Assembly (NCBI GenBank): GCA_003142475.1
Contig: PLMK01000042.1
Location: forward strand, 131,586 to 195,585
Origin: Ignavibacteriota bacterium
Lineage (GTDB): Bacteria > Bacteroidota > Ignavibacteria > UBA10030
Length of the DNA stretch: 64,000 bases
Reading direction: 5' to 3'
Each line of letters begins with the position of its first letter. Positions within the stretch are counted from its first letter, which is position 1. Positions 3,670 through 53,415 of this stretch are shown piece after piece. A program made the position numbers and the translations under genes. Under the pieces are notes generated by a model. That model was given only the letters and a program-made list of their open reading frames with translations. It ran no database searches and had not been told where the DNA came from.

Positions 3670-6213
3670 AGAGTGATGTAGTCGTTTTCTGGATTTCCCT
3701 CTTCCATTTTTACTTTTCACAACAACCATGGTTACATCGTCATGCTGTTCGGAGGAGCCGCGAAACTTTTCTACTTTTGTCAGAATTGCATGCTGAATAC
3801 TTTCTGCGGATAAATGCCGCTTCGTCTTCAACAAATCAACGATGGCTTTTTCTCCCAATTGCTGTTTTCCTTCATTCATTGCCTCAGTAATGCCATCCGT
3901 GTAGAAGAGAAAGAGACTATCTGGCTTGATTGGCATTCTTATTTCTTCTATCGTGTCTTCGAACACCGGACCGCGCTCCAATCCCAATCCAATACCGCCG
4001 CCTTCAATGAATCTAATTTTTCCATTCGCGTTAAAAAGTGCTTTATTATGTCCGGCTCTGCAAATACGCACTTCTTTCTTCTTCATATCGAATAACGCTA
4101 GAATCATCGTGATAAATGATCTGCGATCCATACCATCAAAAATGCGCCGGTTAATATTTGTAAGCATTTCTTTCGGCGTGCTGTAAATATGCGCCGCGAG
4201 CTGGACCATTCCCTGAACCTTCGACATATACAACGCGGCAGACATTCCTTTGCCGGAGACATCTGCAACAACAGCAAGAATTTTATTTGGACTCAATTGA
4301 ATGAAGTCATAGTAGTCGCCTCCAACACTCAATGCAGGCACCGACACACCAGAAATATCGAGACCGGAAATTTCTGGATTCTTTTTTGGAAATAATCCTT
4401 GCTGAATTTTTCGTGCGAGATCCAACTCTTCTTTGACACGCTGCTGATCGATTTCCGACTTATGCAGGCGCGAGTTTTCGATAGCAATGGCGGCTTGTCC
4501 AGCAACGGTCGCCAGCAAGTTGATATCTTCCTGCGAATACACTTTACCGGACATTTTAGGTCCAACATTAATGAATCCTACTAATCGATCCTGCAGAAAC
4601 ATTGGTACAGTTAGAACAACACCGGCGTGCAGTAGTTTTTGTTTTTCTTCTTCCCGTAAATCGGTGCTATCGTACTCATCATCAAGTAAGTGGAGGTCTA
4701 TCGGTTTGCGTGTCTTCTGTAAAAGTGCCATCAGTGTATGGTCACCGTCGCCAAACATACAATCTGCTTGATCCAAATTCTGTGAAGCCGAATTGCATCC
4801 TTCTTTCTCTCCACAAATGAACACAGATATTTTTTCAATATGCATTGTTGAAGAGAGGCGTGAAACAATCGAGTTGAGGATGTGTTCCATTTCCATCAAG
4901 CGCGGAAGTTCCTGTGTAAATTCCAACAAGGCCTGCTGGTAATCGTACCGTTCATGGAAAAATATCCTGTCAATCCCGTTCTGAAAACGCTGTTTAACAG
5001 GATCAAAAATAAAAGCGACCACAATAAGCGATACAATAATGAACAATTGATTATCCTGCGCACCAAAAAAGTAATTTACAAGCGTACCAATCCCATAGAC
5101 AGAGACAAAATAAATAGCAGCCAATGCTGCTGTAACAGTTCCATAAATTAAACTGCGGCGAATAACAACATCGACATCCATTAATCGATGACGAAAGATG
5201 GCATATCCAAAAAACATCGGTACAACAACGAGAAGCATCATCGGCAGGAGAATTATGGGATTGAGAAATGCGATAAATTGAAAAAATGTCTGTGCTACAA
5301 GTGCGTAGGCAAATATAATCAAACCAATGGCGACCCCTATCAGCACTGGACGGAGCTGCACACGTTGCTCTTTGGGGACGATGACGAAGTAACTTCGGAC
5401 AAATAAAACAAACCCGGTAAAGAAAAAGATATAGCGAGTTAAAAAGAAAACAACCGTAATCCATTGGGGTCCACGTATTATTATACCATTTACTATCATC
5501 CCGACGAGCGCTAGAAAACTTATACTATACAAAATTATTGTGAGCATCCGGCTCTTGTGTCCTTTTCGTTTCATAGGGAAAAAGAGAAAAAAGCGTATCA
5601 GCGGTGGAGGCGCAGCGATAGAAGTAAAAATGAACATAAACCCGAGTAGCGCAACTCGCCAGGATGGATCAGTTAAAGGACTAATATTAAATGCTGAGAA
5701 CCCGAAAAAGAGCATCAAATAGATACTGTAATGGGCAAACATACGTTGGATTTTTCCCAATGGCTTGACGATAACAACTACATATCCAACAAATAAAAAT
5801 CCAAATCCAAATAAGAATTGACCTAAATATCCAAGATTGATGTATTTGAGGATGAGAACCCGCACATCGAACTGTGTTCCATTCCTTTCAATCGTATATA
5901 TCGCATACGACCCGACAAGCTTATTAATCATGAGTTGTGCATCATTTGATGTTTTGAAGTTCTTCCCATCAATTTTTACAAGGAAATCGCCATCCTTGAT
6001 CCCTGCCTGTTCGGTTACACCACCACTTATAATATTTCTTATGAGGAGCCTTGAGGTATCTTTATCAATCCAAAAGCATTGGTCATTGCCGGTAACACGT
6101 TCGAACATTTGAATCGAAAAATTGAGAAGACAGAGTCCCAACACGATCAAGGTTAATAGAGTATAGATAATCCTGATTGAACGCTGTGATAATTTGGAGA
6201 ATGGATTTGTCAT
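3631..6213 (-). CDS. Membrane sensor protein: N-terminal TM + PDZ domain, 7-8 TM segments, GAF-like region and C-terminal PP2C/SpoIIE-type Ser/Thr phosphatase
   Basis: PDZ-like GIKDGDFLVKIDG; long hydrophobic block; C-terminal PP2C motifs GDYYDF...AVVADVSGKGMSAALYMS...FLFYTDGITEA. Confidence 0.75.
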   Translation of the reverse strand: MTNPFSKLSQRSIRIIYTLLTLIVLGLCLLNFSIQMFERVTGNDQCFWIDKDTSRLLIRNIISGGVTEQAGIKDGDFLVKIDGKNFKTSNDAQLMINKLVGSYAIYTIERNGTQFDVRVLILKYINLGYLGQFLFGFGFLFVGYVVVIVKPLGKIQRMFAHYSIYLMLFFGFSAFNISPLTDPSWRVALLGFMFIFTSIAAPPPLIRFFLFFPMKRKGHKSRMLTIILYSISFLALVGMIVNGIIIRGPQWITVVFFLTRYIFFFTGFVLFVRSYFVIVPKEQRVQLRPVLIGVAIGLIIFAYALVAQTFFQFIAFLNPIILLPMMLLVVVPMFFGYAIFRHRLMDVDVVIRRSLIYGTVTAALAAIYFVSVYGIGTLVNYFFGAQDNQLFIIVSLIVVAFIFDPVKQRFQNGIDRIFFHERYDYQQALLEFTQELPRLMEMEHILNSIVSRLSSTMHIEKISVFICGEKEGCNSASQNLDQADCMFGDGDHTLMALLQKTRKPIDLHLLDDEYDSTDLREEEKQKLLHAGVVLTVPMFLQDRLVGFINVGPKMSGKVYSQEDINLLATVAGQAAIAIENSRLHKSEIDQQRVKEELDLARKIQQGLFPKKNPEISGLDISGVSVPALSVGGDYYDFIQLSPNKILAVVADVSGKGMSAALYMSKVQGMVQLAAHIYSTPKEMLTNINRRIFDGMDRRSFITMILALFDMKKKEVRICRAGHNKALFNANGKIRFIEGGGIGLGLERGPVFEDTIEEIRMPIKPDSLFLFYTDGITEAMNEGKQQLGEKAIVDLLKTKRHLSAESIQHAILTKVEKFRGSSEQHDDVTMVVVKSKNGRGKSRKRLHHSSIQHRNQESHSY

Positions 6214-32321: not shown

Positions 32322-32588
32322 CAATGGCTTTGTAATTCCTTGGCATCAAGAACCCAACTCCGATAGATTTGTAATCTGAGATGTCTAGTGCGTATGCTGT
32401 TACGCCCTGTTTGAATAATCTGCTCTCTCCTTTAAAAGTTTGTATATCTCAAGTCACTTTTGTAGATTAGAACCAGTTCTACTATGATATGTACACGGGG
32501 AGTAGCGTGTGCATATTTACCGACGTAAAAGTTTTCCAAACATACAATGATATTAATGGGCTGAAAAGTGGAGTCTATCTAATCAGTA

Positions 32589-32600
32589 GTTAGGCGGCAT
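32589..32600. repeat. Isolated attC R' core GTTAGGCGGCAT immediately upstream of the first cassette-like ORF
   Basis: 12-mer identical to 42034-42045 and reverse-complementary to the left end (ATGCCGCCTAAC) of the element at 32907. Confidence 0.5.
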
Positions 32601-32917
32601 TGAATCATATGAATACTATCTCCCATATCAACAATTGTCATAAATGTAACGAGACAAAATCTATTCGTTCGAGTGTATTTCGACAGAACGTAAGCTATTT
32701 ATTTCGGCGGCAAGAAAAGGAGTTTCGAGGATCATTCTGTTTCCGTTGCACCTCAATTCTTTTCTTTAAGTGTACTCTTATTACTCTCATTGGAACTTGG
32801 TGGGGTGTTATTGGTGCACTTATCGGACCCGTTTACATTATTCAGAACATTTATTTCTATTTAAAAAGTGTTTTAAGTTTTCTCTTTAGCAATGAAGAAA
32901 CAACTAATGCCGCCTAA
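32600..32917 (+). CDS. Cassette-like ORF: small Cys-rich (CxxC...CxxC) protein with a C-terminal TM segment
   Basis: Starts (TTG 32600 or ATG 32609) right after the GTTAGGC core; stop codon TAA 32915-32917 lies inside GCCTAAC of the following attC-like element. Confidence 0.4.
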   Translation: MNHMNTISHINNCHKCNETKSIRSSVFRQNVSYLFRRQEKEFRGSFCFRCTSILFFKCTLITLIGTWWGVIGALIGPVYIIQNIYFYLKSVLSFLFSNEETTNAA

Positions 32918-33071
32918 CCAGGCGCTCAAGCAGACGGAATGAGCTCACTACAAAATTCATGGCGATCAGAGGTTTAGTACAATTTGAAAGTTATCAGCGC
33001 CGCAGTCCCGCTGTAAGGGATCCTCGATTCGACTCTTAGTCGAATCGGGACTTAGCCGCCATCCGGTAGGT
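32912..33071. repeat. attC-like recombination site A (about 160 bp imperfect inverted repeat: GCCTAAC...GGCGCTCAAG // CTTAGCCGCC...GGTAGGT)
   Basis: Left end GCCTAAC (inverse core), right end GGTAGGT (core-like); ends are mutual imperfect reverse complements; internal hairpins. Confidence 0.6.
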
Positions 33072-33112: not shown

Positions 33113-33601
33113 ATGCAATTCGTTTGTATCAATTCAGACCATGATTTATCAAGCGTAGTCAAGGTTCTCAACGAAGCGCATGGGACGATTGCAAAGGAAT
33201 TTGGATTTACAAAAGAAAATAATCCAACAAACAGTGCTTTTATTGATGAGCATGCTTTACGGGCACAATTAAATAAAGGTATAGAATTATATCAATTAAC
33301 AGTAAATGATAAAGTTATCGGTTGCATAGCAATTGAAAAATCGGCAAAAGAAATTGACACTTATTATATTGAGAAGGTTTCTATAATTCCAGAGTATAGA
33401 CATCAAGGATATGGAATTAAAATAATGGAATATGCTGCCGAAAAGATCAAGGCACAAAACGGTAAATGGATTTCAATAGCTTTAATTGATTCAAATACCA
33501 GACTTAAAAATTGGTATTCAAAGCAAGGATTTAAAGAAACAGGAACAAGGGATTTTCCTCATTTGCCATTTAGAGTTTGCTTTATGAAAAAAGAAGTATA
33601 A
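33113..33601 (+). CDS. Cassette-like ORF: GNAT family acetyltransferase
   Basis: GNAT motif-A region HQGYGIKIM; flanked on both sides by attC-like elements. Confidence 0.8.
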   Translation: MQFVCINSDHDLSSVVKVLNEAHGTIAKEFGFTKENNPTNSAFIDEHALRAQLNKGIELYQLTVNDKVIGCIAIEKSAKEIDTYYIEKVSIIPEYRHQGYGIKIMEYAAEKIKAQNGKWISIALIDSNTRLKNWYSKQGFKETGTRDFPHLPFRVCFMKKEV

Positions 33602-33603
33602 AA

Positions 33604-33769
33604 CCTGACTAGGTGCTCAAGTCCCGCTGTCAATATAAATTCTTATATAGCGGGATGTCCAAGATGGCGCTGCAAGCGACAGCGCCTATGGCGCACACTC
33701 GGTTTGTCCAGAAGAAAGAATCACACGAAGAGTGATACAATATTTTTCAAGGAGTGCCATTTCGTTGGG
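33604..33769. repeat. attC-like recombination site B (divergent copy of the same family)
   Basis: Starts 2 nt after the GNAT stop; shares GGTGCTCAAG, GGCGC...GCGCC and TGTCCAGAAGAAAGAATCACACGAAGAGTGATAC modules with copies C-E; right end GTTGGGC (33763-33769) fits GTTRRRY. Confidence 0.5.
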
Positions 33770-39796: not shown

Positions 39797-41815
39797 ATGC
39801 GTGCTTTTTTATTTATCTTATTCAGCATTGCCATTGCATCTCTTGCCAGCGCGCAAGAACAGTTAATATCAGATACATCAGATGTTTGGGAAGACAGTTA
39901 TTGGGAAAAGATATTGGAAACTGCCGTACAATCCGATGAAAATTCTACCATTGCCGAAGAAACAACTCAGCTTGAAGACGATCCACTTAATCTCAATACA
40001 GCTTCAGTAGAAGAACTACATCGAATTCCCGCAATATCAAATCTTATTGTTTCCAGGATTATTGATAGACGTAAACGCGAACGATTTACTTCTATAGATG
40101 AACTATTAGAGATCGAAGGAATGACACCGGAATTGCTTTCCTTCATTCGCAGGTTTGTGAGAATTGGAAGGATGAAGAAGGGTCCCAGCCTCAGTGCATC
40201 TTTTCTCAGCAGAACATCAACAGAAATTGAAGAGCGGCAAGGATTTATCAATGGCGCGTATCCCGGCACGCCGATAAAAATACTAAATCGATTTCATCTT
40301 TCAATCGGTAAGAATAAATCACCTTTATCATCCTCGGTTTCTGAATTGGAAGTTGGTGTGCTGACTGAAAAAGATCCCGGTGAACGAAGCATTACAAATT
40401 TCTCAACCTATTTCGCTGGCTTTTCCATCCCGTCAATCTCAACGCATTTTATAATTGGAGATTATCAAATGGAAGCCGCAGAGGGATTGATCTTCTGGAG
40501 TTCATCAGCGTTCGGAAAAGGAAGTGACGTTATTACGCCAGTAAGGAAAAATGGCGGCGGAATTCACCCGTACCTTTCATCTGATGAGAATTCTTTCTTC
40601 CGCGGTATCAGTGCTTCGATTGATTTAGACAAATTGCAGGTCCAAGTTATGTATTCCAACAAAACACTTAATGCAACAATAGATTCGCTCGGAAATATCT
40701 CGTCTCTATACAGCAGTGGATTATTCCGTACCGAAAGTGAACAACGCAAACAGAACTCATCACGAGAGACACTAATCGGATGCCGTGCAGTTACATATCT
40801 TTTAGATGGATTGAAGATTGGAGGTACCTGTTATCGTACTCGATTTGTGAATCCGTTCATGCTCATAGGCAATAATGGCGAAAGTGCATCTGAATTATGG
40901 ATGGAAGGAATGGATCTTTCTTTCACAAGCAAAAATATAGATGTGTTTTCAGAATGCGCTATTGATCGCGCAAACGCACTTGCTGTCATTGCAGGAATAA
41001 CTTATGAACCTGCTGCAATGCTTGCCTTGACAATTACTGCCAGGGATTATCCTTCTGCATTCCAAAGCATCCACGGAAATGCTTTTGGTGAGTTATCCGG
41101 ACAAGTGCAAAATGAGAGTGGTGTGTATGTCGGAATTCGAACGCAGCCCATGAAAGGATTGTGCATATCAACGTACTACGATCAGTTTGAACATTCTCAG
41201 CCGACGTATTTGATTCCAACGCCATCGCATGGCAACGATTTCCTTGCACTTGCAGAATATAACCTAACGGAACAATTTGAAATTGCATTTCGGTTCAAGA
41301 GAAAAGATTCGCCGTCTGCAATTTATGAAAATGATTTATACACAAGAATAGTTCAGCAGACAATTCCGAGAGTCCAGCACAATTATAGGCTGACAGGTGA
41401 ATTCGCATCGTCTCCATCGTTACGTTTATCAAGCAGAGTCGAATGGGTGACAGTTGACTACGGCGGAATACAGAGTGCAGAACAGGGGATGCTGATGTCT
41501 CAAGAAATTAAATGGAATTTATTTTATTCGCTGACAGCACAAGCACGACTTGCTATCTTTGAGACGGACTCCTACGATTCCGCAATTTACGAATTTGAAG
41601 ATGAAGTCCCTGGGGCGTACTCAAATCCCGCTCTCTATGGACGCGGCATGCGCTGGTATTGTATTTTGCGTTATCAGGTCTTTTCAAAAATGTATGTTGC
41701 TGCGAAGTATGCACAAACGGTTAAAGAAGGCGTTAAGTCAATAGGCACCGGCAATGATGAAATTAGTGGAGACAGCCAAAGCATTGTAAGCATACAATTA
41801 GAGGTTCGATTCTGA
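39797..41815 (+). CDS. Large secreted protein with ComEA-like helix-hairpin-helix DNA-binding region and C-terminal beta-rich (probable outer-membrane) domain
   Basis: Signal peptide; HhH motif LNLNTASVEELHRIPAISNLIVSRIIDRR; C-terminal ...QLEVRF. Confidence 0.55.
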   Translation: MRAFLFILFSIAIASLASAQEQLISDTSDVWEDSYWEKILETAVQSDENSTIAEETTQLEDDPLNLNTASVEELHRIPAISNLIVSRIIDRRKRERFTSIDELLEIEGMTPELLSFIRRFVRIGRMKKGPSLSASFLSRTSTEIEERQGFINGAYPGTPIKILNRFHLSIGKNKSPLSSSVSELEVGVLTEKDPGERSITNFSTYFAGFSIPSISTHFIIGDYQMEAAEGLIFWSSSAFGKGSDVITPVRKNGGGIHPYLSSDENSFFRGISASIDLDKLQVQVMYSNKTLNATIDSLGNISSLYSSGLFRTESEQRKQNSSRETLIGCRAVTYLLDGLKIGGTCYRTRFVNPFMLIGNNGESASELWMEGMDLSFTSKNIDVFSECAIDRANALAVIAGITYEPAAMLALTITARDYPSAFQSIHGNAFGELSGQVQNESGVYVGIRTQPMKGLCISTYYDQFEHSQPTYLIPTPSHGNDFLALAEYNLTEQFEIAFRFKRKDSPSAIYENDLYTRIVQQTIPRVQHNYRLTGEFASSPSLRLSSRVEWVTVDYGGIQSAEQGMLMSQEIKWNLFYSLTAQARLAIFETDSYDSAIYEFEDEVPGAYSNPALYGRGMRWYCILRYQVFSKMYVAAKYAQTVKEGVKSIGTGNDEISGDSQSIVSIQLEVRF

Positions 41816-42018
41816 CGCCTTGTGATAGCTTTTTTATTAGTCGTTCTTTTTTTTATCTTGATACAAAAGATCAATAAATGTGATTGATTGACATTTCGGG
41901 GAATTGCAGATAATGATTTTAATCGTCGTTTTTCTTCAAAGTACTTTGGTTCTTAATAATAAACTTTTCAGTATGAACTTGTTTCGTCATCTACATTTTG
42001 ATAATATTCAGCATAGTG

Positions 42019-42045
42019 GCTTAGCCGCCATCCGTTAGGCGGCAT
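42019..42045. repeat. Right half (L'-R') of an attC-like site: CTTAGCCGCCATCCGTTAGGCGGCAT; left half not found
   Basis: Near-identical to the right end of element A (33049-33071); contains consensus core GTTAGGC at 42034-42040; sits 38 bp upstream of the first cassette ORF. Confidence 0.5.
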
Positions 42046-42082
42046 TTTCTATGACATTGTGTAGAATTATGGGAGATTTGAG

Positions 42083-42451
42083 ATGCCCGACGTGAAGTTT
42101 GAAGATCATGGTAATAAAAAAATACTTCTCATAGATTTTTCAAATGCCAAAGACAGTCAAGGTATTGTTGATACAGCAGAAGAAGTCATGCGGCTTGTTC
42201 GCTCGATCAATCAGCAACGGTCAATTCGTGGAATGCTTGATCTTTCTGGTACACCCTTGAATAAAGTCGTCAGAGAGACTATGAGAAAAATGTCTAAGAA
42301 CAATGGACCATATATGAAATTAGTTGCTTTTGTTGGGCTTGGCATCCTTTTATCTCCTTTGTTCAAGGTACTGTTATTTGTGAGCGGGAAATCAAATCAC
42401 AGAGTGTTCAGTACAAGACACGATGCATTCGATTGGTTAGTCGGGAACTAA
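42083..42451 (+). CDS. Cassette-like ORF: hypothetical protein (122 aa)
   Basis: Own RBS (GGGAG); followed 14 bp later by attC-like element C. Confidence 0.45.
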   Translation: MPDVKFEDHGNKKILLIDFSNAKDSQGIVDTAEEVMRLVRSINQQRSIRGMLDLSGTPLNKVVRETMRKMSKNNGPYMKLVAFVGLGILLSPLFKVLLFVSGKSNHRVFSTRHDAFDWLVGN

Positions 42452-42465
42452 AAAATAGAAATGCC

Positions 42466-42665
42466 GCCTACCCAGGCGCTCAAGTGGCGCCGGAAGCGCT
42501 ATGGCGCCTAAAGCGCTCATTCGGCTTATCCAAAAGAATGAATCACGCGAAGCGTGATACTAACATTATTTAAAAATGGTGAATGAATTTGGTTCGTTTT
42601 GTGTATATTGTGCGCCAAAGGCGCAAAAGTTATCAGCGTGGCAGCTTAGCGCCCGTCCGATAGGC
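42466..42665. repeat. attC-like recombination site C (200 bp)
   Basis: Left GCCTACC-CAGGCGCTCAAG, right CTTAGCGCCCGTCC-GATAGGC; contains a perfect ATCACGCGAAGCGTGAT hairpin; next ORF starts 8 bp downstream. Confidence 0.6.
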
Positions 42666-42672
42666 AGCTATT

Positions 42673-43080
42673 ATGAAAACACAAATGACAAAGCAGATTA
42701 TCTACAATTTTGTTGAGGCAATCAACGAACATAACGTTGACAAAATCTGTTCGCTCATGACAGACGATCATAAATTCATTGATTCTCAGGGCAACGAAGC
42801 TGTAGGTAAAGAGCAAATGAGGGCAGGATGGATTGGATACTTTCAATTGTTTCCCGATTATAAAGTCGAAATTACAGAATTGTTTTTTAATGGAAACACT
42901 GCTGCAGTGTTTGGTTTTGCAGGCGGCACATTTCAAGGATTGAGTGATAAGAAGGAAAATTATTGGTATCTGCCTGCTTCGTGGAAAGCGATTACCAAGG
43001 ATGGAAAAATTCATTTGTGGCAAGTTTATGCTGATTCAAAAATTCCTTATGACATTATCAATGCAAGCAAAACACAATAG
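42673..43080 (+). CDS. Cassette-like ORF: SnoaL/NTF2-like (ketosteroid isomerase-fold) protein
   Basis: SnoaL-like pattern (IDSQGNEAVGKEQMRAGWIGYF...); stop TAG 43078-43080 abuts attC-like element D. Confidence 0.65.
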   Translation: MKTQMTKQIIYNFVEAINEHNVDKICSLMTDDHKFIDSQGNEAVGKEQMRAGWIGYFQLFPDYKVEITELFFNGNTAAVFGFAGGTFQGLSDKKENYWYLPASWKAITKDGKIHLWQVYADSKIPYDIINASKTQ

Positions 43081-43082
43081 CT

Positions 43083-43230
43083 GCCTACTCAGGCGCTCAC
43101 TCGGCTTGTCCAAAAGAATGAATCACGCGAAGCGTGATACTAATATTATTTAAGAATGGTGAATGAATTTGGTTCGTTATCAAAATATTGATAGTTATCA
43201 GCGCCGCAACTTAGCGCCCGTACGTTAGGC
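43083..43230. repeat. attC-like recombination site D (148 bp; canonical GTTAGGC core at 43224-43230)
   Basis: Left GCCTACT-CAGGCGCTCAC, right TTAGCGCCCGTAC-GTTAGGC; same ATCACGCGAAGCGTGAT hairpin. Confidence 0.65.
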
Positions 43231-43268
43231 AGCAAAACGTTCTTCAACAAATACAGGAGGATAATCCA

Positions 43269-43625
43269 ATGGGTGCTTTTACTCTTCTTTCGATGATACC
43301 GTGGGATACAATCTTCAAATACAGTCCGATTATTGTTGAAGCTGGCCAAAAGATTTTCAACAGTGTCAACAAATATTTCGGGAATACTTTGAAAGAAAGC
43401 GGCAAACCCAAAAAGGCTTCATTAGAACAATTAGATAAAAGAATAAAACTCTTAGAACAAAATGAACTTGAACAAGCGGATCTGATTGAAAAAATTGCTG
43501 TTCAGATAAACGAACTATCTATCGCCGCCAAGATTATTTCAAATAGAACATTGCTTGCACTTTCTATTTCATCTTTGTCGTTGGTTATCTCACTTGTTTT
43601 ACTTGTGATAAGAGTAGTAAGATAA
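43269..43625 (+). CDS. Cassette-like ORF: hypothetical tail-anchored membrane protein (118 aa)
   Basis: Strong RBS AGGAGG; C-terminal TM helix; stop TAA 43623-43625 followed by attC-like element E. Confidence 0.4.
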   Translation: MGAFTLLSMIPWDTIFKYSPIIVEAGQKIFNSVNKYFGNTLKESGKPKKASLEQLDKRIKLLEQNELEQADLIEKIAVQINELSIAAKIISNRTLLALSISSLSLVISLVLLVIRVVR

Positions 43626-43635
43626 TCGTTGTGCT

Positions 43636-43835
43636 GCCTATCCAGGTACTCCAGCTCGGCTTGTCCAGAAGAATGAATCACGCGAAGCGTGATACTAACA
43701 TTATTTAAAAATAGTGAATGAATTTGGTTCGTTATCAAAATATTGAAAGTTATCAGTGCGTCCGTTCCACATTTCAGGTGCAATGCAATCGCTTAGCGTT
43801 AAGAACGCAACAGACTTTGCACCTGTCCATTAGGC
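43636..43835. repeat. attC-like recombination site E (200 bp)
   Basis: Left GCCTATC-CAGG, conserved core with ATCACGCGAAGCGTGAT hairpin, right ATTAGGC; an extra GGTGCAA...TTGCACC hairpin is inserted. Confidence 0.55.
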
Positions 43836-43868
43836 AACCATGAGGAATATTTTTTTAGGAGCTCTAAA

Positions 43869-44243
43869 ATGTTAACAACACTACTCTTATTCGGCGGACT
43901 TTATTGTTTCGCATTTTCAGTATTTCATATTCTTTTTTGGAAGATCTTTCGTTGGCGTCAGGATTTGCACCGACTTTCACCAACGAATCGTGCTATCATG
44001 CAGATTCTTAACATGCGATTGATCTATATTTTTGTGTTTTTTGGTGTCATATCAATTGTCTTTCAGAACGAACTTCTGTTCACGGCATTTGGTAGATTCG
44101 TTATCATTGTTATTGCGGTGTTCTGGTTCATGCGAGCAATTGAACAGGTCATGTTCTTTGGTATCAAGAATTATGTTTCATTCGCATTATTTATTGTATT
44201 CCTTTTAGGTGGTGGACTCTATGCGTTGCTATTAATTGCATAA
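43869..44243 (+). CDS. Cassette-like ORF: 4-TM membrane protein (124 aa)
   Basis: RBS AGGAG; hydrophobic; no downstream attC-like site (array interrupted by transposase remnant). Confidence 0.45.
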   Translation: MLTTLLLFGGLYCFAFSVFHILFWKIFRWRQDLHRLSPTNRAIMQILNMRLIYIFVFFGVISIVFQNELLFTAFGRFVIIVIAVFWFMRAIEQVMFFGIKNYVSFALFIVFLLGGGLYALLLIA

Positions 44244-44354
44244 TAGAGTATGCTCGACTAACCGGGTGTTCTACAAAGTGGTTTGGCAAAGCCATCGCTT
44301 GGCATAGAGCGCTATGGTGTCGAAGGATCACATTTCGAACGCTAAAATCTTACT

Positions 44355-44576
44355 ATGAGAATGAACATGCTACGGCTTACCCGGCTAACCCTTAGTTTTA
44401 GTAAAAAGTTAGAGAAACACAAAGCCGCTATTGTATTACATTTCTTTCATTATAACTTTATGCGTATCCATCAAACGCTTAGAGTAACACCGGCAATGCA
44501 AGCATGTGTATCAAATCACATTGGGAACTGGCAGGAATTCTTAGGAATCGCAAAAACAGCAAGAAAGGCGGCATAA
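44355..44576 (+). pseudogene. C-terminal remnant of a DDE transposase (IS1/IS1595-like), 5'-truncated
   Basis: HFFHYNFMRIHQTLRVTPAMQACVSNHIGNW resembles the YNFxRxHxxL...TPAM...W tail of DDE transposases; no N-terminal catalytic region upstream. Confidence 0.5.
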
Positions 44577-44809: not shown

Positions 44810-45148
44810 ATGGAAAAAGAACAAATGGCAAAAAAACAAATTGCGCTAAGAATAATCGGACAAAAAAAGGGCAGCATCTATATAGCTGTTTGCCTTGAAA
44901 CCGATATCTTTATTCAAGCCTCTTCCGTTCCAGAAATAAAGAGAAAAATGGCAGATGCTCTTACGGCGTACTTTAAATCATTTAGTTCAGACGAGATAGA
45001 ACAAGGTGTCTTTTTTAGAAAAGCACCTATGAAGTATCGGATTGGTTGGCATTTATTGACGGTTGTTAGTTTTACAGGTAAAATTTTAAAATCAATAAAC
45101 TTTAATGCCAATTACGATCCATACTCCCAACATCTAAAGCTTGCCTAA
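44810..45148 (+). CDS. hicB: HicB-like antitoxin (UPF0150 fold)
   Basis: YIAVCLETDIFIQASSVPEIKRKMADALTAYF resembles the HicB N-terminal domain; overlaps the hicA-like gene by 8 nt. Confidence 0.5.
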   Translation: MEKEQMAKKQIALRIIGQKKGSIYIAVCLETDIFIQASSVPEIKRKMADALTAYFKSFSSDEIEQGVFFRKAPMKYRIGWHLLTVVSFTGKILKSINFNANYDPYSQHLKLA

Positions 45149-45437
45149 ACAATATCCGCCCTTAACCCCTGAAGAAGTATTGGCAATTTTAAAAGTGCAG
45201 GGCTTTACATTGGACAATACTGTCGGTAGCCATGCGAACCATGTCGGTTATACCAACGACATTAAAAGAAGAGTCACGGTAGACCTAAAGATCAAAGGCT
45301 ACTCTCCAGAGTTGATGAAAAGCATGATAAGGCAGAGCGGTTTATCCCGTGAAGATTTTTATTGTTCAACCAAAAAAACAGCTGTAAAAATTAATATGAG
45401 AAAAAAGGTTATTAAGACTGAGATTGCCCCAAAGTAA
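45141..45437 (+). CDS. hicA: HicA-family mRNA interferase toxin
   Basis: VLAILKVQGFTLDNTVGSHANHV...IKGYSPELMKSMIRQSGL matches the HicA/YcfA signature (GSHxxx). Confidence 0.6.
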   Translation: MPKQYPPLTPEEVLAILKVQGFTLDNTVGSHANHVGYTNDIKRRVTVDLKIKGYSPELMKSMIRQSGLSREDFYCSTKKTAVKINMRKKVIKTEIAPK

Positions 45438-50546: not shown

Positions 50547-50782
50547 AAACGGGTGCAGCAGAATTTAATAATGGACTGTAGGAAAAAAATATCTTCCCGA
50601 GAATCGACGCTCATCAAGAAGCAAAGGAAGGATGATCCTCCTCAATTCTGCGACTTTTCTTGCAGGCACGCGGAATTTGCCCAGCCCGATGCAATTGGCG
50701 CATGCAGAAAAGAACTTGCTGTATTTTGTACATTATATAAAAGACACAACAATAAAAACTCCCCTTGTATCGAAAAGAAGAA

Positions 50783-52042
50783 ATGAAAACTGCAAAACAC
50801 GTGTCCCTGCAACTTAATAGAGAATTAAACGATATTGCCGAGCCATATGTAAAGCTCGTTCTTGCCGTTGGACAGCACGATGCTGACTATGTAGATGCTT
50901 ACTACGGCCCACCAGAATGGCAGGCAGAAACAAAAGCTGAAAAACAATCGTTAGACACGATACTGCAAACAGCGCTTCCTCTAAAAACTAAATTAGACAA
51001 ACTCCGCAGCAAGCAGAACGAAGAAATTTTACAGCTTCGCCATCAATACTTGAAGAAACAAATCTCGTCGCTCATTGCCCGCGTTGAAGTATTAGGCGGG
51101 AAGAAACTTTCATTCGATGAAGAAGCAAAGGCATATTATGATGTTGAACCACCGGTGTTTGCGGAAGAGCATTTCAAAAAACTTGTTGCAGAATTGGAAA
51201 CGATTGTACCGGGCAAGGGACCAATTCCCGAACGCATCGAAAATTTTCGCGAACAATTTACTATTACTCCGGACAAGTTAGATAAAGTATTTAGTGCCGC
51301 AATTTTCGAATGCCGTCAACGCGCAAAGAAGCACATCATCCTGCCGGAGAATGAAACATTCCGGTTGGAATACGTGCATAACAAAGCGTGGAGCGGCTAT
51401 AATTGGTATAAAGGGAATAACGAAAGTCTCATTCAGATTAACACAGACTTGCCGATTTTTATGGAACGCGCCATTGATCTTGCCGCACACGAAGGATATC
51501 CGGGGCATCATGTGTACAATTGTTTATTAGAGACAGCATTTGCACGTAAATTTGGATGGGTGGAGTTCACTGTATATCCTCTCTTCAGCTCGCAGTCGTT
51601 GATAGCAGAAGGGACCGCCAATTTTGGTATTGAAGTTGCGTTCCCGGGAAAAGAACGAATGGAATTTGAACGCGAGAGACTCTTCCCGCTTGCGGGGTTA
51701 GATAAAAGTCAGGCGGAAAAATATTCCAGGGTTCAGGAGCTTGCCGCAAAACTCAGTTATGCCGGCAACGAAGCCGCTCGAAAGTATCTCAACGGAGAAA
51801 TCTCGCGCGATGAGGCCGCTCAATGGCTCGTTCAATATGCTCTTATGTCGCCGGAACGCGCGCAGCAGCGCACACGTTTTTTCGATCAGTACCGCAGTTA
51901 CGTCATCAACTACAATCTCGGTTTGGATTTAGTACGGCAATACATCGAACGACGCGGCGGAACGGAAGACAAACCGGAAAAACGCTGGGAAGAATTCACT
52001 CGCCTCCTTGCATCACCTCGTTTGCCTTCGGGATTACTTTAG
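50783..52042 (+). CDS. HEGYPGHH-motif protein (DUF885-like putative metallo-hydrolase), paralog 1, no signal peptide
   Basis: About 75-90% identical over long stretches to the next gene; AAHEGYPGHHVYN motif; ATG at 50783 preferred over TTG 50765. Confidence 0.45.
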   Translation: MKTAKHVSLQLNRELNDIAEPYVKLVLAVGQHDADYVDAYYGPPEWQAETKAEKQSLDTILQTALPLKTKLDKLRSKQNEEILQLRHQYLKKQISSLIARVEVLGGKKLSFDEEAKAYYDVEPPVFAEEHFKKLVAELETIVPGKGPIPERIENFREQFTITPDKLDKVFSAAIFECRQRAKKHIILPENETFRLEYVHNKAWSGYNWYKGNNESLIQINTDLPIFMERAIDLAAHEGYPGHHVYNCLLETAFARKFGWVEFTVYPLFSSQSLIAEGTANFGIEVAFPGKERMEFERERLFPLAGLDKSQAEKYSRVQELAAKLSYAGNEAARKYLNGEISRDEAAQWLVQYALMSPERAQQRTRFFDQYRSYVINYNLGLDLVRQYIERRGGTEDKPEKRWEEFTRLLASPRLPSGLL

Positions 52043-52086
52043 ATAGTTATATTACTAGGATTTTTTTATAACATTGGGAGAAGAGA

Positions 52087-53415
52087 ATGAGACCACAACG
52101 ACTATTCATTTTAACTGTGATTTTTTTCATCGTTGCAAGTATAGGGTACAGCAAGGAAATTAATAATGTAAGGTTATATCCCGACCTTAACTCAAGACTG
52201 AATCAAATTGCTAAATCATACGTTAAACTCGTTCTTGCTGTCGGACAATACGATTCTAATTACGTCGATGCTTTTTATGGTCCCAAGGAATGGCTAACGG
52301 AAGCACAATCAGCAAAGAAGTCACTTGATGCTATCAGGCAGAAGGCGCTTCCTCTTGCAGCAGAGCTGGATTCGCTCGACAGCACCCACGAAGAAGAAAT
52401 ACTACAACTGCGTCATCAGTATTTGAAGAAGCAACTTTCGTCGCTCATCGCTCGTGTTGAGACACTGGGCGGCAAGAAGCTCTCATTCGACGAAGAGGCA
52501 AAAGCATATTACGATGTCGACCCGCCGAGTTTTCCAGAAGAACATTTCAAGAAGCTTATTGCCGAATTAGACACGATAGTCCCCGGCAAGGGATCGATTT
52601 CTGAGCGTGTCGTAAACTACCGTCGACAATTCACCATTATCCCGGATAAAGTTGACACAGTTTTACGTGTTGCTATCCGAGAGTGTCGAATTCGTACAAA
52701 GAAGCACATCAAATTATCAGACGACGAAACTTACCGGCTAGAATATGTTCACAATAAATCATGGGGCGCGTACAATTGGTATAAAGGAAACAACGAAAGC
52801 CTTATTCAAATCAATACCGACATGCCGATGCCCCTTCATTCTGTGATCGACCTTGCTGCTCACGAAGGTTATCCAGGGCATCACGTATACAATAGCTTGC
52901 TTGAAACAAATTTTGCATCTAAGCGCGGCTGGGTAGAATTTACTGTTTATGCACTTTTCAGTCCACAATCGCTCATCGCCGAGGGAACCGCAAACTTCGG
53001 CATTGAAGTCGCATTCCCCGGGAAGGAGCGAATGGAATTCGAGCGCGACGCACTCTTCCCGCTTGCGGGACTGGATAAAAGTCTGGCAGAAAAATATTCG
53101 AAAGTACAGGCTCTTATTGCAAAGCTCAGTTATGCCGAAAATGAGGCCGCACGCCGGTATCTCAATGGTGAAATCTCGGGTGATGAAGCTGCACAATGGC
53201 TTGTCAATTATGCGTTGAGGAGTCCAAAGGAGGCACAGGCGTCGATACGCTTCTTTGACCAGTACCGCAGCTACGTAATCAATTACAATCTTGGGATGGA
53301 TTTAGTCCGGCAGTACATTGAACGCCGCGGCGGAACGGAAGACAATCCGGAAAAACGCTGGGAAGAATTCACGAAACTTATTTCATCGCCGCGCTTACCG
53401 TCAGGATTACTCTAA
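52087..53415 (+). CDS. HEGYPGHH-motif protein (DUF885-like), paralog 2, with signal peptide
   Basis: Signal peptide MRPQRLFILTVIFFIVASIGYS; same motifs as paralog 1. Confidence 0.45.
   Translation: MRPQRLFILTVIFFIVASIGYSKEINNVRLYPDLNSRLNQIAKSYVKLVLAVGQYDSNYVDAFYGPKEWLTEAQSAKKSLDAIRQKALPLAAELDSLDSTHEEEILQLRHQYLKKQLSSLIARVETLGGKKLSFDEEAKAYYDVDPPSFPEEHFKKLIAELDTIVPGKGSISERVVNYRRQFTIIPDKVDTVLRVAIRECRIRTKKHIKLSDDETYRLEYVHNKSWGAYNWYKGNNESLIQINTDMPMPLHSVIDLAAHEGYPGHHVYNSLLETNFASKRGWVEFTVYALFSPQSLIAEGTANFGIEVAFPGKERMEFERDALFPLAGLDKSLAEKYSKVQALIAKLSYAENEAARRYLNGEISGDEAAQWLVNYALRSPKEAQASIRFFDQYRSYVINYNLGMDLVRQYIERRGGTEDNPEKRWEEFTKLISSPRLPSGLL

Follow-up and report, generated by a model that had tools for sequence, protein, structure and literature searches.

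Repeats behind small genes of an Ignavibacteriota genome are probably attC sites with an unusually long, modular variable region

Introduction

In a 64,000-nucleotide stretch of the Ignavibacteriota bacterium assembly GCA_003142475.1 (contig PLMK01000042.1, positions 131,586 to 195,585; we refer to this whole stretch as the window and number positions from its first letter), small open reading frames (ORFs) are followed by repeats whose ends resemble those of attC, the recombination site of integron cassettes. A sequence-only reading of one such repeat had offered two explanations, a new long attC family or a miniature inverted-repeat transposable element (MITE) unrelated to integrons that borrows attC-like ends. 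Which of these are the repeats, and what fills sites of this size? From the comparison with related genomes described below, we conclude with a probability of roughly 0.88 that they are attC sites and form a lineage-specific family of peat and wetland Ignavibacteriota with an unusually long, modular variable region. It is the size, two to three times that of textbook attC sites, and the mosaic build of the sites that are unusual; integrons as such are already on record in Ignavibacteriae (PMC9024848). No description of attC sites of such size or build was found in the searchable literature.

Results

Window elements have attC-like ends and exceed the described length

Every element in the window begins 1 to 15 nt past the stop codon of a small plus-strand ORF, and the next ORF lies 20 to 45 nt beyond its end. 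At the 5' ends stands the inverse-core site of attC, GCCGCCTA(A/C)CCAGGCGCTCAAG, and at the 3' ends its core site, CTTAGCGCCnnnCGTTAGGC. With element length counted from GCCTA.. through ..TAGGC, the copies read here as attC sites are the following (interior modules H, X, and Y are described below).

32912..33071, plus strand: attC copy A, 160 nt, with X-type interior modules and without the H hairpin
33605..~33775, plus strand: attC copy B, 5' part only, truncated and diverged, without the L'/R' end
41948..42040, plus strand: 3' half of an attC site (..ATGAACTTGTTTCGTC..CTTAGCCGCCATCCGTTAGGC), which opens cluster 2
42466..42665, plus strand: attC copy C, 200 nt, with H module (hairpin 42540-42560) and Y module
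43083..43230, plus strand: attC copy D, 148 nt, with R'' GCCTACT, H (hairpin 43120-43140), Y, and R' GTTAGGC
43636..43835, plus strand: attC copy E, 200 nt, with R'' GCCTATC, H (hairpin 43675-43695), Y, an extra hairpin, and R' ATTAGGC

Copy A has the R'' box GCCTAAC and a degenerate R' box, GGTAGGT. Copy C consists of R'' GCCTACC, L'' GCTCAAGT, GC hairpins, H, Y, L' GCTTAGC, and R' GATAGGC. Copy B carries a degenerate R'', CCTGACT, and an H module at 33699-33738 in which one stem pair is broken. The half site at 41948-42040 matches attC 3' halves of the related loci L010, L018, L030, and L033 at 85-97%. We considered copy B and this half site as the two halves of one split attC and rejected this, since the Y-core segment is present in both.

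A repeat search recovered a direct-repeat family of 105 nt at 42520-42624, 43100-43204, and 43655-43759 (84-94% identity to the reference copy), and a second family of 41 nt that adds the copy B segment 33698-33738. Three copies at least 84% identical over 105 nt cannot be similar by coincidence, and the core that the sequence-only reading had seen in C, D, and E is thus a real repeat; its description of copy B as a diverged version also held. The same applies to its observation that lengths of 148-200 bp, which our measurements in nucleotides reproduced, lie beyond the usual range, which it had quoted correctly: attC length is given as 57-141 bp (PMC5371416) and VTS (variable terminal structure) length as 20-100 nt (PMC4889954), with longer VTSs in sedentary integrons (PMC5371416). 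Because this length is a description and not a mechanistic requirement, we treat the excess as a variant within attC membership.

Seventy-two sites share a canonical base

A fuzzy end-box search in the window and in related loci paired the ends of 72 sites, from which we derived the R and L boxes and the extrahelical position that the sequence-only reading had proposed to define. On the 5' side, the order is R'' GCCTAAC, a 5-nt spacer, and L'' GCTCAAGC; on the 3' side, it is L' GCTTAGC, an 8-nt spacer, and R' GTTAGGC. R'' and R' form Watson-Crick pairs in 63-71 of the 72 sites at the inner five positions. L'' pairs with GCTT-AGC and leaves a bulged extra C on the top strand, corresponding to an extrahelical G on the bottom strand, so that the R''/L''...L'/R' layout carries the canonical bulged base. 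The spacer is partly paired (GGC/GCC), and the GGCGCT/AGCGCC helix beside the R box occurs in compensatory variants, GCGGCT/AGCCGC and GCAACT/AGTTGC. For the bottom strand, the predicted fold comprises the R helix, an internal loop, a helix, and the bulged G. Site length ranges from 51 to 414 nt (median, 223), with 68 sites longer than 141 nt and 47 longer than 200 nt.

Cassette flanks carry the crossover signature of integrons

In the integron model, strands are exchanged at G|TT of R', and the bases beyond this point belong to the downstream cassette and complement the flank of its own R''. For each cassette, we therefore set the 6 nt that follow GTTAGGC against the 6 nt that precede its own GCCTAAC. 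These were complementary at 4.82 of 6 positions, 20 of 38 pairs being perfect, compared with 2.22 for the two flanks of the same composite site and 2.31 for random pairs. The signal was present in each class of the cassette's own attC that we considered: sites longer than 200 nt (4.77), sites longer than 250 nt (4.68), and sites carrying H (4.78). Within the window the matches reach 10-16 nt (TTAGGCGGCAT / ATGCCGCCTA and TTAGGCAGCAAAACG / CGTTGTGCTGCCTA).

A cassette boundary could also be seen directly. Window cassette 3 (43269-43625) has a homologue with 82% amino-acid identity in a different array, L009 (5572-5853). The two are alike in DNA sequence over the ORF and its flanks, with the G|TT point as one limit and R''/L'' as the other, and beyond these limits they are unrelated; the array neighbours differ, and the attC interiors are unrelated as well.

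Related genomes hold arrays of the family next to integron integrases

We scanned 185,579 species genomes (596 Gb) with a 21-mer pattern of the hairpin found in C, D, and E (GAATCACNCGAAGNGTGATAC, 19 fixed bases). This gave 42 loci, compared with ~4 calculated by chance, and all but one came from metagenome-assembled genomes (MAGs) of Ignavibacteriota or 'Bacteroidota' obtained from peat, fen, and similar samples; the exception, L022, is a coding-looking chance match. About 20 matches fell in the single MAG SPRUCE 408. Viral contigs contained 0 matches to the pattern, and a phage origin of the hairpin was rejected on this ground. The hairpin occurs in three contexts: 34 copies in attC-type elements, ~14 in palindromes of ~80 nt, and 3 in a third context. 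The 34 element copies are bounded by GCCTAACCAGGCGCTC ... CTTAGCGCCnnTCCGTTAGGC and lie in same-strand arrays at spacings of 0.6-2.7 kb, the cassette bodies having a median length of 660 nt. Counting copies and their contexts, as the sequence-only reading had suggested, thus showed full elements only in same-strand cassette arrays behind small ORFs, never antisense, and without target duplications of the MITE type.

Proteins encoded in L018 and L019 scored 453 and 450 bits, respectively, on the NCBIfam model TIGR02249, 'integron integrase' (cut-off, 265). In L018, intI is divergent from an attI-like region that contains direct repeats (GTTAGGCTGCAATATGCAGTCTAAC ...) and is followed by cassettes ending in family sites of 155-185 nt. 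L019 has the same layout of divergent intI, attI-like repeats, and array, and so do metagenomic contigs with a 90-100% identical IntI, whose attC sites measure 155-218 nt. Overall, the association with integrase and attI was found in L018, L019, L048, L049, L051, and L055 and is absent in the 64-kb window. Following the established integron model, the bottom strand would fold on itself, IntI would bind its R and L boxes, and strands would be exchanged at G|TT of R'. The sequences themselves show that each cassette carries the complement of its own R'' flank beyond G|TT and that, in related genomes, an integrase and an attI-like site lie directly upstream of family arrays. The family thus has the complementary R''/R' boxes, the L boxes with extrahelical base, the array position, the crossover signature, and the IntI/attI link of attC sites. 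Arrays behind small ORFs, TIGR02249 integrases in relatives, and this circular-permutation signature bear out the first of the two earlier suggestions, that of a new long attC family.

Site interiors were more alike within than between genomes (Jaccard index, 0.056 versus 0.033; permutation p < 0.0005), and C, D, and E are one another's nearest relatives, closer than any site elsewhere. Their mutual likeness fits the known within-host homogeneity of chromosomal attC sites, conservation of attC within a taxon being documented for chromosomal integrons (PMC8352920).

The interior is a mosaic of optional modules

Between the L boxes, the variable terminal region has grown to about 100-370 nt and forms a same-orientation mosaic of optional modules, mostly small local hairpins. 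Module H consists of TCGGCTTGTCCAGAAGAAT / TCGGCTTGTCCAGA.. and a 7-bp ATCACGC/GCGTGAT hairpin, module X is marked by AATGAGCTCACTGCAAAATTCATGGCGAGCATAGG.., and module Y contains ..ATGAAYTTGKTTCGTT..TTGAAARTTATCAGCGCCGCA / ..ATGAACTTGTTTCGTT..TTGAAAATTATCAGCGCCGCAG and partly duplicates the end of X. Further interior parts are an alternative 3' module with a mini-hairpin of its own and six or more optional hairpins rich in G+C. Apart from the hairpin and a 10-mer unit, AGCCGGAGGC, the modules are found in attC sites alone, where they always occupy one strand and keep a fixed order. The core common to C, D, and E is a derived arrangement in which H is joined via an A/T-rich linker directly to Y. 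What had been called a conserved core is therefore a genuine repeat in these three copies and not one unit, being an optional H module fused to a Y module.

The palindrome ATCACGC-GAA-GCGTGAT noted earlier is present in C, D, and E as the hairpin GAATCACGCGAAGCGTGATAC (42540-42560, 43120-43140, and 43675-43695); its counterpart in copy B, GAATCACACGAAGAGTGATAC (33718-33738), contains a single A.A stem mismatch. As DNA, the 7-bp hairpin folds at -6.7 kcal/mol (z = -4.5), a value equalled by 0 of 200 shuffles. We then examined 32 distinct versions of the H module, chosen by their 5' flank and not by the hairpin itself. In the stem, 98.7% of cells were paired, and double compensatory changes occurred at two pairs (A-T to G-C in 7 rows and G-C to T-A in 5 rows), a covariation reached by 0 of 500 shuffles. 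The loop, in contrast to the stem, varied (GAA, AAA, GGA, GGT, AGA, AAC, and ATA). The exact d(GCGAAGC) heptamer, described as a DNA mini-hairpin (PMC13037366), does stand atop the 7-bp stem in C, D, and E, but loops such as AAA, AGA, GGT, AAC, and ATA lack its G.A pair, and the stem is maintained instead. Judged from these alignments, d(GCGAAGC) is common in the family but is not its conserved feature, as the sequence-only reading had supposed; the stem is. ATAC after the hairpin is invariant, corresponding to GTAT before it on the other strand, and the exact H hairpin is optional, occurring in 23 of the 72 sites.

Two side observations concern this mosaic. Minimal sites of 51-57 nt (GCCTAACCAGGCGCTTCCCGCAATCCCGATATATCGGGAGCCGATCCGTTAGGC), which have no modules, share arrays with sites longer than 300 nt (L033 (+) 663 and 2147; L040 (+) 4659), and their L-type pairing is a different one, GGCGCTCCCG / CGGGAGCC. 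Besides, the right-hand segments TTGTGTATATTGAAAA, ATCAACATATTGAAAA, and GGGTGCATGTTGA come after either ..TTTCGTT or ..GGGCTCCGCCTGTT, the latter of which is also seen at the end of real cassettes (..CCTGTT|AGGCGGC). Such a pattern would be compatible with mosaics generated by recombination at internal GTT sites. The segments were noted at the following loci.

L043, plus strand, 2235: right-hand segments
L029, minus strand, 7185: right-hand segments
L041, minus strand, 606: right-hand segments
L040, plus strand, 6201: right-hand segments
L042, minus strand, 3248: right-hand segments
L011, plus strand, 1933: right-hand segments

Predicted folding depends on the base and not on the modules

Folding was modeled with DNA parameters and the R box forced to pair, and the probability of that state was computed. 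The median was ~0.35 on either strand, even for sites longer than 300 nt. Among the window copies, D reached 0.57 (bottom strand), C 0.036, E 7e-4, and A 3e-4. When arms of 32 nt were kept and the interior was shuffled, the probability of R-box pairing did not change over 54 sites (Wilcoxon p = 0.68), and the idea that interior modules aid site folding is thus without support in this thermodynamic model. The good predicted folding would be explained by the long basal stem, with modules neither helping nor hindering it.

Related hairpin units occur outside attC sites and nest within one another

The 21-nt hairpin also tips the ~80-nt intergenic palindrome mentioned above, TGTCATTCCCAGCCGGAGGC..hairpin..GGCTTCCAGCTGTCGGGAAT (~14 copies), which has no attC ends. 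Hairpin copies outside attC sites are intergenic and occur in both orientations. The 10-mer AGCCGGAGGC was found 28 times in 316 kb, compared with 0.6 expected (~46-fold excess). It always precedes a short hairpin of variable sequence followed by (A)TAC, and a larger GTCATTCCC...GGGAAT hairpin usually has this unit in its loop. Across L006-L047, such nested palindromes have the form GTCATTCCC(GC)...(GC)GGGAAT around AGCCGGAGGC(C)TGAGAAT, a variable 6-8-bp hairpin, and (A)TAC; they had no Rfam match and no consistent orientation to genes. One of those in L019 lies ~100 nt downstream of intI. Examples are as follows.

L019, 2600-2690: nested palindrome
L012, 4437-4560: nested palindrome
L018, minus strand, 2487: nested palindrome

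Seven AGCCGGAGGC units lie inside attC sites, and in several of these (L029, L035, and L025) the H hairpin is interrupted by the unit right at the end of its 5' arm (GAATCACGC|AGCCGGAGGCC), which produces nested hairpins. Hairpin units inserted in H end in a new mini-hairpin, TTGCAC-GAA-GTGCAA-TAC, and the sites concerned reach 330-414 nt. The likeness between the H 5' flank and the AGCCGGAGGC unit was not significant (p of ~0.02 with the shared GAAT and 0.18 without it). Interrupted H hairpins were located at these positions.

L029, minus strand, 7185: interrupted H hairpin
L035, plus strand, 2077: interrupted H hairpin
L025, minus strand, 5095 and 6334: interrupted H hairpins
L010, minus strand, 4611: interrupted H hairpin
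L009, plus strand, 4687: interrupted H hairpin

One speculative reading, which we consider doubtful, is that the single-stranded loop of an attC hairpin may serve as a landing pad for tiny loop-targeting hairpin elements, the AGCCGGAGGC-hairpin-ATAC units; the units would nest in one another and in other intergenic palindromes as well.

The window holds two integrase-less and probably inactive clusters

The remaining features of the window clusters are listed here.

32571..32595, plus strand: attI-like start of cassette cluster 1, GAGTCTATCTAATCAGTAGTTAGGC, without integrase upstream
32600..32917, plus strand: cassette ORF, 105 amino acids (aa), no Pfam match
33113..33601, plus strand: cassette ORF, GNAT acetyltransferase (Pfam)
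42083..42451, plus strand: cassette ORF, 122 aa, no Pfam match
42673..43080, plus strand: cassette ORF, SnoaL-like (Pfam)
43269..43625, plus strand: cassette ORF (window cassette 3), 118 aa, homologue in L009
43869..44243, plus strand: last cassette ORF of cluster 2, 124 aa, hydrophobic, no Pfam match
44258..44576, plus strand: right edge of cluster 2, with a possible degenerate R''/L'', CGACTAACCGGGTGTTC, then a short ORF at 44355-44576

Cluster 1 (32.6-33.8 kb) contains A and the truncated B, and cluster 2 (41.9-44.3 kb) contains the half site with C, D, and E. Between them lie ordinary-looking genes for DinB, amidohydrolase, UbiE, TatD, DUF4835, and a ComEA-like HHH protein. No integrase was detected, either by Pfam scans of the ORFs at ~23.6-48.6 kb or by tblastn with IntI1 over the whole 64-kb window, and a metagenome scan with IntI returned no contig from a sample holding the window locus. 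Each cluster thus combines cassettes with at least two clustered attC sites and has no integron integrase nearby, as does a CALIN (cluster of attC sites lacking an integron integrase; Cury et al. 2016, PMC4889954). Unlike a CALIN, one of them starts with an attI-like sequence, and both hold truncated sites.

The boxes in the window are degenerate. Their triplets (R''/R') are AAC/GGT in A, ACC/GAT in C, ACT/GTT in D, and ATC/ATT in E, so that 0 of 4 complete sites keep both AAC and GTT, compared with 62 of the 68 sites elsewhere, a set whose search was biased toward intact end boxes. Erosion has affected the L-box feature with its extrahelical base in D and E but left it clear in A and C. Gene arrangement in the window was identical in every listed contig from many metagenomes, including one of 812 kb. 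Cassette mobility was not apparent for the window either: the listed contigs with the SnoaL cassette all had the same arrangement, and only cassette 3 has a homologue in the fetched loci. Given the loss of both triplets together in all four sites, the truncated sites, and the same arrangement across metagenomes, we infer that the clusters are probably two CALIN-type remnants, fixed in the species and inactive.

The start of cluster 1, GAGTCTATCTAATCAGTAGTTAGG, shares 24 identical nt with the beginning of an array without integrase in L030 (5725-5748) and resembles the intI-adjacent sites GCAGTCTAATCATAGTTAGGCAGC in L018 (~3870-3945) and GTCCGTCTAATCATAGTTAGCACGC in L019 (~1285-1310), whose attI-like cores read ..GTCTAATCATAGTTAGG... 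Either a remnant of attI or a secondary insertion site that has been conserved may be present here. In L030, a palindrome, AGATAGACT-G-AGTCTATCT, precedes the 24-nt array start. With an attI-like start in one cluster and truncated sites in both, the two look like the remnants of a once complete integron that may have been split by ~8 kb of ordinary genes.

Several neighbouring features were also recorded. In the cassette 3 protein, the N-terminal part is coiled-coil-like and the C-terminal end hydrophobic. The 73-aa ORF at 44355-44576, on the right edge of cluster 2, contains ..FSKKLEKHKAAIVLHFFHYNFMRIHQTLRVTPAMQA.. and has no Pfam match; it may resemble the C-terminal end of IS1595-type transposases and would then be a putative IS fragment into which the cluster runs. 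Just past cluster 2, at 44810-45437, two small overlapping ORFs of 112 and 98 aa may be a toxin-antitoxin pair, the 98-aa ORF matching the HicA toxin weakly (E = 2e-5) and short of the Pfam cut-off; no attC of the window family follows them. Farther downstream, at 50765-53415, are tandem paralogous ORFs of 425 and 442 aa without Pfam match, whose DNA is 73-82% identical at an offset of 1373 nt; downstream of these lie an ORF with a partial DNA methylase domain (N6_N4_Mtase) and a GDSL lipase.

Discussion

Could the whole element of 148-200 nt instead be a nonautonomous transposable element of the MITE or repetitive extragenic palindromic (REP) type, with ends that merely look like attC? It is a dispersed multicopy repeat with a stable hairpin and dozens of copies per genome, and its 21-nt hairpin also occurs outside cassette arrays. 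Full elements, however, are found only in arrays, behind small same-strand ORFs and never antisense; their ends are R''/R' boxes, without the terminal inverted repeats and target duplications of a MITE; their flanks carry the integron crossover signature; and arrays abut integron integrase and attI. The array context, the integrase and attI neighbours, the crossover signature, and the boundary of cassette 3 together exclude the MITE explanation for the element as a whole, which we regard as scarcely credible, and the earlier suspicion of a mobile element survives for the 21-nt hairpin module only, which forms the apex of another palindrome. It is also improbable that the core of C, D, and E is a cis-acting transcript element, be it an antisense intrinsic terminator, a promoter driving the downstream cassette, or a small RNA. 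A T-rich tail (ATCACGCTTCGCGTGAT TCATTCTTTT) does follow the hairpin on the minus strand, the segments 42542-42558, 43122-43138, and 43677-43693 pass a simple terminator-like filter, 6 terminator-like sites fall in 41800-44400 compared with 2.0 +/- 1.4 in shuffles, and the stem covariation would also fit RNA. Against this, G-C pairs number only 4 in the stem, and the tail is not continuous; Rfam gave no match at gathering score in the window and none in 41800-44400 with E <= 1, its matches in 17 related loci being limited to two tRNAs; neither a sigma-70-like promoter site nor, by eye, a Bacteroidetes-type TAnnTTTG was seen in C, D, and E; copies outside attC sites have no consistent orientation to neighbouring genes; and the module is optional among otherwise similar sites.

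A different question, compatible with attC identity, is where the interior comes from. The H hairpin, and perhaps other modules, could be selfish or mobile mini-hairpins that colonise hairpin loops, including the variable region of attC, by insertion or gene conversion, so that site length would reflect accumulated 'junk' tolerated by IntI. This is a possibility we take seriously while holding the odds to be somewhat against it. The same 21-nt hairpin caps a different ~80-nt palindrome and a third context in the same genomes; AGCCGGAGGC is in excess, and of its seven units inside attC sites some come right after the H 5' arm; H is optional, with module-free sites of 51-57 nt in the same arrays; the attC interiors of a cassette and its homologue in another genome are unrelated; and interior shuffling leaves the predicted folding unchanged. 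On the other hand, no transposase, target duplication, or pair of empty and filled sites was found for any module (the transposase was not sought genome-wide), and the likeness of the H 5' flank to AGCCGGAGGC is not significant. H occupies one fixed place, directly inside the L-box stem, and the other modules, confined to attC sites in fixed order and strand, are more like products of within-lineage duplication and deletion than of free insertion.

For the identification as attC sites, several points weigh on the other side. The evidence is wholly comparative, recombination itself never having been observed. Function in the window cannot be claimed, with no integrase there and degenerate R boxes. 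The site finder needs near-consensus end boxes and is thereby biased toward intact sites, and some ends may be mispaired, for instance in the three sites of 51-57 nt and in those longer than 350 nt. A minority of sites combine the GGCGCT 5' arm with a noncomplementary 3' arm such as AGTTGC. Finally, the interior is not an imperfect palindrome, unlike that of classical attC sites and Vibrio cholerae repeats (VCRs), and the folding model gave no sign that the modules serve recombination.

Among known systems, VCRs of chromosomal integrons come close: they, too, are host specific and mutually similar, stand behind small ORFs in extended arrays of one strand, and exceed the attC sites of mobile integrons in size and branching. 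VCRs measure ~120-130 nt, compared with 148-200 nt for the window sites and a maximum of 414 nt among relatives (median, 223), and form an imperfect inverted repeat over their whole extent, whereas here only the basal ~25 bp are so built and the remainder is a directional mosaic of optional hairpins. The attC of a mobile integron (aadA7) shares with the family the R'' box RYYYAAC, the R' box GTTRRRY, an unpaired spacer, the crossover G|TT, L boxes of the GYTCAAGC / GCTTAR type, and the extra top-strand C that corresponds to an extrahelical bottom-strand G; it differs in that such sites measure 57-141 bp and in that the spacer of the family is partly base-paired. REPs and bacterial interspersed mosaic elements of enterobacteria are mosaics of short palindromic units with optional members, REPs containing GTAG and being mobilised by a REP-associated (HUH) transposase. 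The family resembles them in its variable hairpin mosaics, in the intergenic dispersal of related hairpins, and in the ATAC/GTAT of its hairpin, which recalls the GTAG of REPs, but its mosaic lies inside a site-specific recombination site with fixed strand and order. The IS1111-attC group and group IIC-attC introns insert into attC sites, whose interior can thus host foreign DNA; these are gene-bearing elements of 1.5-2 kb, whereas the family modules are noncoding and 20-100 nt long.

The window itself is a modest locus, its decayed, integrase-less cassette clusters encoding GNAT, SnoaL-like, and several small unknown proteins, and its local biology is ordinary. The family has a wider meaning, since attC is the only sequence a cassette needs to move, and the accepted size of 57-141 bp shapes models and software. 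A median of 223 nt and a maximum of 414 nt, combined with a canonical base and the crossover signature, indicate that terminal structures can be far larger and more complex than usually assumed and still be tolerated by the integrase system. If the default attC size limit of IntegronFinder is 200 nt, 47 of the 72 sites would be missed, and the cassettes of peat and wetland Ignavibacteriota would be undercounted. Were the landing-pad reading true, attC sites would grow by accretion past 400 nt yet stay recombination competent, standard integron detection with its size limits would miss most cassettes in such lineages, and this would be an interplay of REP-like mini-elements and integron sites that has not been described before. 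A hairpin common to attC sites and an unrelated palindrome is a small lead on the origin of attC interiors and possibly of attC sites themselves. The optional modules also provide a natural series of deletions and insertions in which the effect of the variable terminal structure on folding, competition with single-stranded DNA-binding protein, and recombination may be followed.

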